This document shows, one piece after another, positions 25,748 to 27,828 of a DNA stretch of 64,000 nt. Location of the stretch: contig ML978134.1 in NCBI GenBank assembly GCA_010015805.1, forward strand, positions 496,001 to 560,000, written 5' to 3'. Positions within the stretch are counted from its first letter, which is position 1. Each line of letters starts with the position of its first letter. The translations under genes and the position numbers were made by a program. The notes beneath the pieces were generated by a model, which saw only the letters and a program-made list of their open reading frames with translations, did not search any database and had not been told where the DNA came from. The DNA comes from Rhizodiscina lignyota (lineage: Eukaryota).

Positions 25748-26623
25748 TTACAGAACTCCGGTCTTGTTGCCTCCTCTTTTCTCTTCAGCCCAGTCAAAAA
25801 TGGCCTTGTAGTCGCGACATTCATGCGTTACACCCCATCCGTCCACCCCGTGATGCCCATTCGCGACCCATTCTAGACTCGTATCACCACAACACATCAG
25901 TGTTTGCCGAAGATAGTCAAAGCAGTGACGGAGATGGAAGTCATTTACATGACCATTTGGATCATTGGTGATATTGTTGAGGGCGTTGTAGTACCCTACG
26001 CGGATTATGTCCTGACTTCCAGTTAGAGTCCGTTCTCAGCTCCTTGAAATGTGACATACCAAGCAATGAATCTGATGGAAGACTGCGAGACCGGCTCGTT
26101 GTATATGGGACTCATTCTTAGCCGGATCGAACTCTGATCGCTCAAACATGATGAAGCCGCGACCGGCTGAAATGTCATTAGCGATCGTGTTTTACCATCT
26201 GTCTAATGGTATTAAAGACATACTAGGCATCATCGCCGCCCATGCATCGTTACTCTCGTTAGAAGGCGGGTCTGTGTAGATTTCGTGGAAACTGAACGTC
26301 TCGATCTTCTGCGGAACTGCGATGTTGTGAGTCACAAAATAGATACGCACGTGAAAAGGCGTGAGAACCGTACAAGAAGGGACGAATAATGGATGGCCGT
26401 CAGAGTCGGTTATGGTTATTCGAATTTTGATAACATTTGTGAAAAGGATGAGAGCGAGAAGGATAGCAGTTGCCACAAAAGCCCAGAGACCAAGGTTCCA
26501 CCTCCGAAAGATTGAATCTTTTCCTTCTTTCAATTCATGTCCCGTTGATTCACCCAAGAAAGGAACCTTTTCGATATCTTGTTCTTTGATTTCATCGCTG
26601 CCGCGAGGAGCAATTTGAGCCAT
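25748..26623 (-). CDS. DUF3328 / UstYa-like oxidase (fungal RiPP cyclase family), 4 exons, 237 aa
   Basis: Exons 26623-26374, 26316-26224, 26166-26060 and 26011-25748 with GT..AG introns of 57, 57 and 48 nt. Protein has an N-terminal TM (LGLWAFVATAILLALILF), NDAWAAMMPTGRGF, AVFHQIHCL, HLRHCFDYLRQTLMCCGDTSLE and GWGVTHECRDY, i.e. both HxxHC motifs and the typical C-terminus. Confidence 0.95.
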
Positions 26624-27379
26624 TGTTGACTGCTACTTCGAAGAACTTGAAAAAAGATGTGAGAGACATTATTGAATAGCTCTGGATTATTATTTAGCAG
26701 GCTACTAGATGCCTGGGGTTTACTTACGGGGAAATATGCTAAACATGCTCATGTCAGCCTGCATATTCCGTATCGTGTATGTCCAACTATGCCTGACCGC
26801 AAAATTCGCACTTCCGACGGTACGGCGTCTTCGCCTTGCACGCTAATTGGCGGATCGGAGTTGGCGACATGTTTCACAACGTCCGGCTGGGAGCTTTACG
26901 CTGATCCCTAGTGATGGCGAGCTTCGTATACAGTAACATCCTCCGAAGACTCTTACGCAGACGCGCCGGGGTTCGAATTCTCGTAACAAGATAGTATTAG
27001 CTCCCATACTGATCGGCAATTAGGATCTCGGTCCAGACACCTGCGAGATCAAGTGTTACATTCTAAGTGGTACAAAAAATTTCTCAGCTGACTTGTTGTC
27101 TCAGTCAGTCAGGCCTGGAAGAACTTACGAAGGGAGGGGAAGACTAGAAGCGGAGAATGTCGAAGCATCGGAAGGATTGTCCGGGAAGGAGAATATTTAA
27201 GGTGGCCGAGATCACCTTGGATTCTTTCTCACTTCAGGTCACCGAGCTGCTCTCCACCTCAGCTTCTCGCCACATCATATTACAACTGATCAAACCCATT
27301 CTTCCTCCAGAGGTAGAGAGCCATCAATATTTCCTCTCATTGAAGCCAGTAGTGCTGATACCGTGCAGGATAGACCACC

Positions 27380-27828
27380 ATGCGTATCAGTGGTATTACC
27401 ATCTCCGCCCTTCTGGGCATCACGGTCGCCAGTGCGATACCTGCTCCAGCGGCTGGTGTTCGAAATGACATGACAAGTAAGTTCTGCTCGCGGCCGGAAT
27501 GGACTGTGGCTGACATTCCCATCTATAGAGTGAGTATGAAGCTCCAGTTGCCGATGACTTCTCTAAGGACATCAACAGGAGGGCGGAAAAGAGGGAAGAG
27601 GATCCATTCAAGTGGGACAAGCGTGAAGAAGATCCGTTCAAGTGGGATAAGACCAAGCGCGAAGAAGATCCGTTCAAGTGGGACAAGACCAAGCGTGAAG
27701 AAGACCCATTCAAGTGGGACAAGACGAAGCGTGAGGAAGATCCGTTCAAGTGGGACAAGCGTGAGGAAGATCCATTCAAGTGGGATAAGACTAAGAGAGA
27801 GGAAGATCCATTCAAATGGGACAAATAG
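27380..27828 (+). CDS. Kex2-processed repeat precursor (KEP; candidate RiPP precursor) with signal peptide and 7 EEDPFKWD(KT)KR units
   Basis: Exon 1 (27380-27476) encodes signal MRISGITISALLGITVASA/IPAP; the last exon reads AEKR then seven repeats and ends at TAG 27826-27828; nucleotide differences between units are synonymous in this frame. Splice path between 27477 and 27578 is ambiguous (115 or 125 aa). Confidence 0.9.
27595..27825 (+). repeat. Coding tandem repeat, 7 units of 30 or 36 nt (last unit 27 nt)
   Basis: Unit GARGARGAYCCRTTCAARTGGGAY(AAGACN)AAGMGN; unit lengths 30, 36, 36, 36, 30, 36 and 27 nt. Confidence 0.95.

Follow-up and report, generated by a model that had tools for sequence, protein, structure and literature searches.

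Within a 64,000-nucleotide stretch of the fungus Rhizodiscina lignyota (contig ML978134.1, positions 496,001 to 560,000; hereafter the window), two divergent genes separated by 756 bp probably form a minimal module for the production of a modified peptide. One encodes a putative precursor of the Kex2-processed repeat protein (KEP) type, and the other an oxidase of the UstYa family, also called DUF3328. We read the pair as a dikaritin-like system of a filamentous ascomycete, that is, a source of a peptide that is made by the ribosome and modified afterwards (a RiPP), reduced here to one KEP and one UstYa oxidase, and from the sequence we give this reading a probability of about 0.6. It is based on the match of the oxidase to the family profile PF11807, its two HxxHC motifs, its transmembrane (TM) helix, its conserved cysteines C180, C190 and C215, and its likeness to the characterised enzyme CctR. 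On the side of the precursor, it is based on a signal-type N-terminus, eight dibasic sites, seven identical repeat units and the selection that has acted on their peptide frame. The divergent adjacency of the two genes, taken together with the statistics for KEP and DUF3328 genes reported by Umemura 2020 (PMC7329392), the adjacent precursors present in some metagenome relatives but in no shuffled sequence, and the precedents of asperipin-2a (a single DUF3328 gene), victorin (a Phe cross-link) and the epichloecyclins (GigB alone for cyclisation) argue in the same direction.

The UstYa-type oxidase

The oxidase gene occupies positions 25748..26623 of the minus strand. Enumeration of the GT-AG introns with good donors left a single model of exactly 237 aa, the length that a preliminary description of the window had proposed for a membrane-anchored protein carrying HQIHC and HLRHC motifs. 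The model has its ATG at 26623 and four exons (26623-26374, 26316-26224, 26166-26060 and 26011-25748, the last one including the stop at 25750-25748), and it agrees with PF11807, with a family hidden Markov model (HMM) and with an alignment of 14 homologs. All three introns (26373-26317, 57 nt; 26223-26167, 57 nt; 26059-26012, 48 nt) end in CAG. The first of them is also stop-free and in frame; if it were retained, 19 residues would be added directly behind the TM segment and the isoform would measure 256 aa. As a gene model, this two-intron version was rejected because the 19 retained residues fall in a gap in 14 of the 14 full-length homologs.

The Pfam and family-HMM scores were taken piecewise (exons 1+2, exon 3 and the last exon) and not on the spliced protein. 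The last exon matched PF11807 (UstYa) with 66.3 bits (cut-off 25, E = 4.7e-18), covering positions 153-219 of the 220 in the profile, while exons 1+2 and exon 3 gave weak but collinear matches of 14.1 and 14.4 bits at profile positions 9-90 and 125-137, respectively. The DUF3328 profile comparison that had been suggested as a check of the preliminary description thus favoured it. When the HMM built from the 14 homologs was run against the six frames of the window, the oxidase pieces scored 127.1, 24.7 and 24.7 bits, and the next best match had E = 0.67.

Judged by hydropathy only, the predicted protein contains one hydrophobic segment, at residues 44-62 (LGLWAFVATAILLALILFT; 26438..26494, minus strand; Kyte-Doolittle 19-residue maximum 2.43), with an N-terminal tail of some 43 aa in front of it and four N-x-S/T sequons on its C-terminal side. 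The first HxxHC motif (HQIHC, residues 145-149; 26063..26077, minus strand) aligned with FHQ[IL]HC[LI] in all 14 homologs. The second one (HLRHC, residues 176-180; 25922..25936, minus strand) is continued by DYLRQ..C..D and aligned with the corresponding homolog motifs, giving an HxxHC(x)nHxxHC arrangement in which n = 26. In an alignment of 27 sequences, H179, C180, Q186, C190, D193, E197, G208 and C215 were invariant and H176 was conserved in at least 90%; the oxidase has cysteines at 180, 190/191 and 215. On the basis of the last-exon match and both HxxHC motifs, the protein is, by its sequence, a member of the UstYa/DUF3328 family (PF11807).

The repeat precursor

The precursor gene is located on the plus strand, head-to-head with the oxidase gene. 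Its ATG is at 27380 and that of the oxidase at 26623, and the spacer between them (26624..27379, ATG to ATG) has precisely the 756 bp previously described. This spacer is presumed to be a shared promoter, through which both genes might be regulated together. A TATA-like sequence, TATTTAAGG, occurs in it at 27194-27202, about 185 nt upstream of the precursor ATG. Exon 1 (27380..27476; 97 nt, ending in phase 1) encodes the putative signal peptide and the start of the pro-region (MRISGITISALLGITVASA and IPAPAAGVRNDMT). Its product starts with M-R and a 15-residue hydrophobic core (Kyte-Doolittle value of 1.76 at residues 3-21), followed by A-S-A before I20 and then by IPAP. This N-terminus looks typical of a signal peptide, and from the -3/-1 rule cleavage would be expected after A19. 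Under a model with a 71-nt intron, exon 2 (27548..27828, plus strand) encodes an acidic pro-region ending in AEKR and the repeat array, closed by a TAG stop at 27826-27828.

The array (27595..27825, plus strand; periods 36 and 66 in Tandem Repeats Finder, TRF) consists of seven identical EEDPFKWDK units, at 27595-27621, 27625-27651, 27661-27687, 27697-27723, 27733-27759, 27763-27789 and 27799-27825, in agreement with the seven KR-delimited repeats of the preliminary description. The units are separated, in this order, by R, TKR, TKR, TKR, R and TKR, which generates dibasic KR sites (KR or KTKR), and the precursor carries eight dibasic sites in all (seven KR and one RR). The array has the at least three similar units separated by dibasic KR sites by which a KEP is recognised. 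At the DNA level the copies of the unit vary at seven of their 27 positions, all of them third codon positions (P of about 4e-5 if the sites were random). In pairwise comparisons, the unit codons differ by 58 synonymous and 0 non-synonymous changes, and each of the other two frames gives seven different peptides. Because the seven variable bases are all synonymous, this codon pattern establishes the translated frame, that of EEDPFKWDK, and shows purifying selection on the whole nine-residue unit. An unspliced frame of 172 codons that starts at the precursor ATG (27380-27892) and would encode a basic, Ser-rich repeat was rejected, as all the unit differences are non-synonymous in that frame. 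When we applied a detector of KR-delimited repeats, the precursor array was the only open reading frame (ORF) of this kind in the 64 kb, and control loci totalling 521 kb gave none in any of three shuffled versions. Chance does not account for the array.

Linkage of repeat precursors to UstYa genes

Umemura 2020 catalogued 7878 KEPs. For 1758 of them (22%) a DUF3328 gene lay no more than 15 genes away, most often immediately next to the KEP; conversely, 31.8% of all DUF3328 genes were near a KEP (PMC7329392). We analysed the same kind of linkage in metagenome contigs, which were scanned with an alignment of the last exon of the oxidase. Of 431 candidate stretches, 329 were confirmed; the 80 best loci among them, which represent 50 lineages at 90% identity, were kept. 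An adjacent repeat precursor with dibasic sites was present beside the UstYa relative in six of the 50 lineages (the L009 group, which comprises 10 loci, L034, L050, L056, L008 and L041), and in three of them (the L009 group, L034 and L041) the two genes were arranged head-to-head, as in the window. The strict detector, run on all 80 loci, revealed the precursors of the L009 group, L034 and L050; that of L056 was found by TRF and that of L041 by a motif scan, both also run on all 80, while that of L008 came from a looser detector run on 18 of the 80 loci. None of the metagenome precursors resembles EEDPFKWDK.

The precursors beside UstYa genes at L009:4043-4556 (and nine near-identical loci), L041:176-808, L050:10654-10884 and L056:1936-2379 are related to each other. 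In their units an acidic leader precedes an aromatic-x-Trp core (DADDKVVYTW, DDDAIAYAW, DADDAVAYAW and DADDAVVYAW), and in L009 and L056 the precursor adjoins two UstYa genes. Judging from these units, the four lineages look like carriers of one widespread precursor type. A special link between the F-x-W core of the window and these Y-x-W precursors was considered and is unsupported, as the UstYa proteins beside the latter show 33-46% identity to the oxidase, compared to 52-58% for loci without a precursor. A different repeat precursor, of more than 430 aa and with at least eight units of about 24 residues (TNWYSDSASGVAESL...KR), is encoded at L034:825-2303, head-to-head with a UstYa gene and with a cytochrome P450 fragment at the contig end.

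Evidence against an active module

Several observations weigh against the proposal that the window carries a working two-gene module, and its weak points are a canonical precursor intron that is out of frame and the lack of detectable orthologs. The intron region of the precursor (27477..27547, plus strand) starts with a GTAAGT donor at 27477 and contains a branch-like CTGAC at 27510-27514. The canonical intron, 27477-27528, is 52 nt long, ends with a TAG acceptor at 27528 and is the only one combining a strong donor with a CTGAC located 15 nt upstream of the acceptor. Its removal after the 97-nt exon 1 gives a 33-aa product ending ...DMTK-stop and leaves the repeats one base out of frame. The repeat frame is open from 27529, and the acceptors that would restore it are an AAG at 27541 (65-nt intron) and a CAG at 27547 (71-nt intron), both without a branch-like motif at the usual distance; otherwise a poor donor would be needed. 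An alternative donor, GTGAGT at 27530, used with an acceptor at 27591, was judged unlikely, since that acceptor is a weak AAG lying past a CAG that is out of frame, and its use would remove the pro-region ending in AEKR. The preliminary description had assumed a signal-peptide precursor carrying the repeats. Both the signal exon and the array are indeed present, but the single reading frame joining them is not what the canonical intron gives, a mismatch that had gone unnoticed.

This prompts one to ask if the module is a relic, in which a one-base frameshift at the junction between exon 1 and the intron has split the signal peptide of a former KEP and UstYa system from its repeats, so that no peptide is made. 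We regard this as unlikely, in spite of the splicing habits of the comparable genes. Nine Pfam-supported exon junctions were surveyed in the housekeeping genes of the window, and in five of the eight that gave candidates the best intron was 49-60 nt long and ended in a CAG or TAG that had a CTRAY or TTAAY motif 9-11 nt ahead of it; the remaining three were of 82 nt with the motif 18 nt away, of 70 nt without a motif, and of 45 nt with the motif 27 nt away. This comparison is indicative only, because the scoring rewards a short distance from branch to acceptor and the habit is therefore partly built into it. The introns of the oxidase gene itself are 48-57 nt long and end in CAG, and the KEP genes of the metagenome lineages L009 and L034 have canonical short introns, in frame, at the equivalent place between a signal exon and a repeat exon. 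An assembly indel at the junction is also unlikely, as a public contig with a depth of about 153 is identical across the locus, although this contig may be the source of the window itself. Against a relic, the repeat exon is intact (free of stops and indels over 300 nt, with 0 non-synonymous differences), the oxidase gene is intact and has canonical introns, and a CAG acceptor 19 nt beyond the canonical one restores the frame. Since the repeat exon and the oxidase are intact, any lesion must be very recent. As far as can be judged from the gene models, then, either the precursor uses an unusual acceptor or it has suffered a very recent frameshift.

Neither gene has a close relative in the collections that we searched. 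The protein collections do not contain the oxidase of the window itself, and an exhaustive HMMER search with the last oxidase exon retrieved 1706 representatives at E<=1e-3, of which 255 reached E<=1e-10 and 0 reached E<=1e-30, the best with 54% identity, while a word-indexed search with the oxidase gave one distant match. By these comparisons the oxidase is without a close ortholog in the searched collections. The nearest relatives with a name are hypothetical proteins, and they come from Xylariales, Purpureocillium, Icmadophila, Lasiosphaeria and Beauveria, all of them Pezizomycotina. For the precursor, word-indexed searches found homologs neither among 2402 candidates of similar length (E<=1e-3) nor among 7726 longer ones (E<=0.1), and its best scores in the Atlas, 0.77-0.78, were below the useful level. 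Moreover, the motifs PFKWD, DPFKW, FKWDK and EEDPFKWD had no relevant occurrence in the searchable literature, and FKWD, PFKW and DPFK had 0 occurrences in the supplementary text of Umemura 2020, whose long files may be incomplete (PMC7329392). With no detectable homolog of the precursor, conservation of the EEDPFKWDK peptide cannot be shown. The same survey lists 2560 stand-alone KEPs without homologs (PMC7329392).

The linkage data also have two sides. Eighteen lineages had 3 kb or more of upstream and 2 kb or more of downstream flank; a precursor was present in only two of these, the other 16 having no KEP alongside, and the nearest UstYa relatives with flanks (L003, the L004 group and L007) had no detectable repeat precursor within 3.6-6 kb. 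The clusters that do carry a precursor are mostly larger than the pair in the window, with two UstYa genes (L009 and L056), a P450 (L034) or a P450 and an O-methyltransferase in the flanks (L050), which suggests that a single oxidase may not suffice. As to conserved linkage, the check that had been proposed for the pair, precursors and UstYa genes thus recur side by side at the family level, matching the literature, but the data do not allow this one pair to be called conserved.

These numbers bear on another explanation, namely that the KEP is the precursor of linear secreted peptides (pheromone-, hormone- or effector-like) that stay unmodified, its UstYa neighbour serving another pathway or none. 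According to Umemura 2020, 78% of the KEPs have no DUF3328 neighbour and many of them are thought to be linear (PMC7329392). The absence of tyrosine from the core would fit, and so would the nearest Atlas clusters, which include alpha-factor precursors, although at a score of 0.77 they are a lead at best. We nevertheless think it improbable that this explains the pair, because the sole KEP and the sole UstYa gene in 64 kb are immediate divergent neighbours and because the head-to-head layout recurs in three independent lineages. In addition, no Pfam family, MF_alpha included, matched either precursor piece at E<=1, and neither a nonribosomal peptide synthetase (NRPS) nor any other candidate substrate pathway for the oxidase was found in the Pfam scan of the ORFs of the window. 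According to the 2020 survey, KEPs annotated as mating factors or pheromones are, with three exceptions, unaccompanied by DUF3328 genes (PMC7329392).

The remaining objections to the dikaritin-like reading concern the chemistry. The EEDPFKWDK core contains no tyrosine, the residue cross-linked in the classical dikaritins, whereas the repeats of DUF3328-linked KEPs contain Tyr in 65.6% of the cases and Trp in 20.5% (PMC7329392). Furthermore, since DUF3328 enzymes also hydroxylate and halogenate (PMC12435403), cyclisation by the oxidase is not assured.

Genomic surroundings

The preliminary description had recognised no tyrosinase, methyltransferase, transporter or transcription factor nearby and had concluded that this was a two-gene system. 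To survey the window, 223 of its 233 stop-to-stop ORFs of at least 85 aa were scanned against Pfam; the other 10 lie inside the gene pair, and two of these were scanned separately. No tyrosinase, methyltransferase, major facilitator superfamily transporter, P450 or S8/S41 peptidase was found among these 223 ORFs and 60 smaller ORFs in the flanks, a second UstYa gene was not detected by the family HMM in the six frames of the 64 kb, and a Zn2Cys6-like motif was absent from every frame. The only ABC protein (51447-53904) carries the ABC_tran_Xtn domain of ABC-F factors, and no membrane domain was seen in it. Within the 64 kb, therefore, the two-gene description stands.

On one side of the pair, up to 24.0 kb, we identified genes for coatomer beta, a lipid kinase of the diacylglycerol-kinase type, a glutathione S-transferase, Apq12, arginase, an Fpg glycosylase and a NatA auxiliary subunit. 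On the other side, from 30.8 kb, there are genes for a macro-domain protein, two HET-domain proteins, a protein kinase, TrpD, Dis3/Rrp44, the ABC-F protein and an AA12-like oxidoreductase. The pair itself lies in a gene-poor island of about 7 kb, between the NatA auxiliary-subunit and macro-domain genes, with a GC content of 0.42-0.47 compared to 0.50-0.57 around it; the 60 smaller ORFs (at least 40 aa), located in the gaps at 24.0-25.7 kb and 27.9-30.8 kb, matched no Pfam family. The region 30789-39683 contains the macro-domain ORF, HET-domain ORFs at 31934-32695 and 37881-39683, and the protein kinase at 34777-36174. Such a grouping of macro-domain, HET and kinase genes is typical of fungal non-self-recognition regions.

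Proposed pathway and its significance

If the module is active, the precursor would enter the endoplasmic reticulum and the secretory pathway by means of its putative signal peptide, whose features are visible in the sequence and which would be cleaved after A19. The oxidase, with its TM segment and motifs, would be a type-II membrane protein exposing the HxxHC(x)26HxxHC domain to the lumen and, by analogy with CctR, might work as a homodimer with a binuclear copper site (PMC12435403). There it would oxidise a C-H bond in each unit, most likely forming a cross-link between two of the side chains in P-F-K-W-D. One of the aromatics, F or W, could, for example, be linked to a residue two positions away, in parallel with the Tyr-Ile bond of ustiloxin and the Phe-Leu bond of victorin. 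The cross-links of ustiloxin and victorin join residues two apart in their cores. Kex2 would then cleave after each KR, and a basic-residue carboxypeptidase together with other exopeptidases would trim the ends, releasing modified peptides of 8 or 10 residues or shorter, up to seven from each precursor, which would be secreted. Two genes could suffice for such a pathway, because no dedicated transporter is needed and both Kex2 and the signal peptidase are housekeeping enzymes. What the sequences show is the family of the oxidase, its motifs, the architecture of repeats and cleavage sites, the selection on the peptide, the adjacency of the two genes and the recurrence of their layout elsewhere, while the topology, the copper site, the succession of steps, the kind of modification and the end product are inferred.

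Without a tyrosine in the core, the chemistry would be unlike that of the classical dikaritins, with their Tyr ethers. It is conceivable, if doubtful, that a single binuclear-copper UstYa enzyme, helped by neither a tyrosinase nor a second oxidase, installs on this Tyr-free P-F-K-W core a cross-link not yet described in fungal RiPPs, for instance from Trp or Phe to a neighbour. The oxidase could also work without cyclising anything, by hydroxylating or otherwise functionalising a C-H bond of a linear peptide (at Lys, Pro or Trp, for example), much as CctR acts on cyclochlorotine. CctR is a C(sp3)-H hydroxylase, the activities listed for the family include halogenation, hydroxylation and isomerisation (PMC12435403), and the core offers no Tyr phenol for a classical ether. 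We hold this to be a slight possibility, given that all the characterised DUF3328 cases linked to a KEP (ustiloxin, phomopsin, asperipin-2a, victorin and the epichloecyclins) are tied to cyclisation, and that cross-linking of a Phe side chain is possible, as victorin demonstrates (PMC9233826).

An active module would enlarge the small group of UstYa-dependent peptides of fungi by a core that contains Trp, Phe and Lys but no Tyr, in the form of a very compact substrate-enzyme pair of one precursor and one oxidase, with no accessory genes within 64 kb. Such a pair would be useful because a DUF3328 enzyme, CctR, was biochemically characterised as a copper enzyme only in 2025 (PMC12435403). Should the Tyr-free cross-link be real, the pair would represent an orphan dikaritin subclass, a self-sufficient two-gene cassette and the simplest natural system in which to study how a DUF3328 macrocyclase recognises and oxidises its substrate. 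The arrangement as such is not surprising, as 1758 KEPs with nearby DUF3328 genes had already been listed in 2020 (PMC7329392). What appears to be new, from the sequence, is an orphan Tyr-free peptide with an unusually small gene set, and not a new principle.

Comparison with known systems

Ford et al. 2022 describe dikaritins as multicore precursors that are processed by Kex2 and cyclised through the action of homologs of UstYa/UstYb (PMC9233826). An older definition, quoted in a survey of lichens, requires five genes, including a tyrosinase, a methyltransferase, several DUF3328 genes and a transporter or peptidase, while a redefinition of 2021 takes a DUF3328 protein with two HxxHC motifs as class-defining (PMC12048977). 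Of the older set, no tyrosinase, methyltransferase, extra DUF3328 gene, transporter or peptidase was found in the scans of the window. In line with the newer definition, its UstYa gene is clustered with a repeat precursor, the two being immediate divergent neighbours.

The pair resembles the asperipin-2a system of Aspergillus flavus in its KEP, whose KR-delimited repeats come after a putative signal peptide, in having a single oxidase of the UstYa family as the only candidate cyclisation factor and in the lack of a tyrosinase. The asperipin-2a precursor and oxidase are named AprA and AprY, and their cluster also contains a reductase and a transporter. The asperipin-2a core is rich in Tyr and forms two Tyr-derived ether rings, unlike that of the window, which has no Tyr and nothing else nearby, and no sequence similarity was found between the two precursors. 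A single DUF3328 gene is also what the 2020 survey gives for the asperipin-2a pathway (PMC7329392).

The classical dikaritins ustiloxin and phomopsin resemble the module in that a Kex2 repeat precursor, headed by a signal peptide (a putative one in the window), occurs together with proteins of the UstYa family that bear two HxxHC motifs. They differ from it in having 2 to 5 DUF3328 genes, a tyrosinase, a methyltransferase and a Tyr-Ile ether, none of which has a counterpart in the window, where the core is without Tyr. The victorin cluster of Cochliobolus victoriae contains several DUF3328 genes and an amine oxidase, and its product is chlorinated. Like the peptide proposed here, victorin is derived from a KEP and has a Tyr-free core, which is cyclised through a Phe side chain (PMC9233826), but its core sequence is unrelated to that of the window.

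Cyclisation of the epichloecyclins in Epichloe requires one DUF3328 protein, GigB, and some species lack the methyltransferase (PMC10540207). The gigA/gigB/gigC/kexB cluster of Epichloe festucae is similar to the pair in combining a repeat precursor with one cyclisation DUF3328 protein and in its dispensable methyltransferase, and its cores INFKIPYT and PNFKMPYR contain an F-K pair, as does PFKW, which may be a coincidence (PMC10540207). Unlike the unit of the window, these cores end in P-Y and are cyclised through Tyr, and the cluster has a Kex-like protease and a SET methyltransferase of its own, neither of which was found in the window.

Finally, the oxidase can be compared with CctR, a member of the same family characterised by Huang et al. 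2025 (PMC12435403). CctR has a cytosolic N-terminal tail, a TM helix at residues 38-59 and a luminal helical domain whose HxxHC(x)nHxxHC motif holds a binuclear copper centre; its homodimer is kept together by C190-C213 disulfides, and it hydroxylates cyclochlorotine in an O2- and electron-dependent reaction, one of several activities, macrocyclisation among them, that are listed for DUF3328 proteins (PMC12435403). The oxidase of the window shows the same layout, with a disordered N-terminal tail, one TM segment (44-62) and the two spaced motifs, and its conserved cysteines 190/191 and 215 lie near the positions of C190 and C213, a correspondence that is an analogy only (PMC12435403). The two enzymes differ in their substrates, since CctR hydroxylates a non-ribosomal cyclic peptide, whereas the oxidase described here adjoins a ribosomal repeat precursor.

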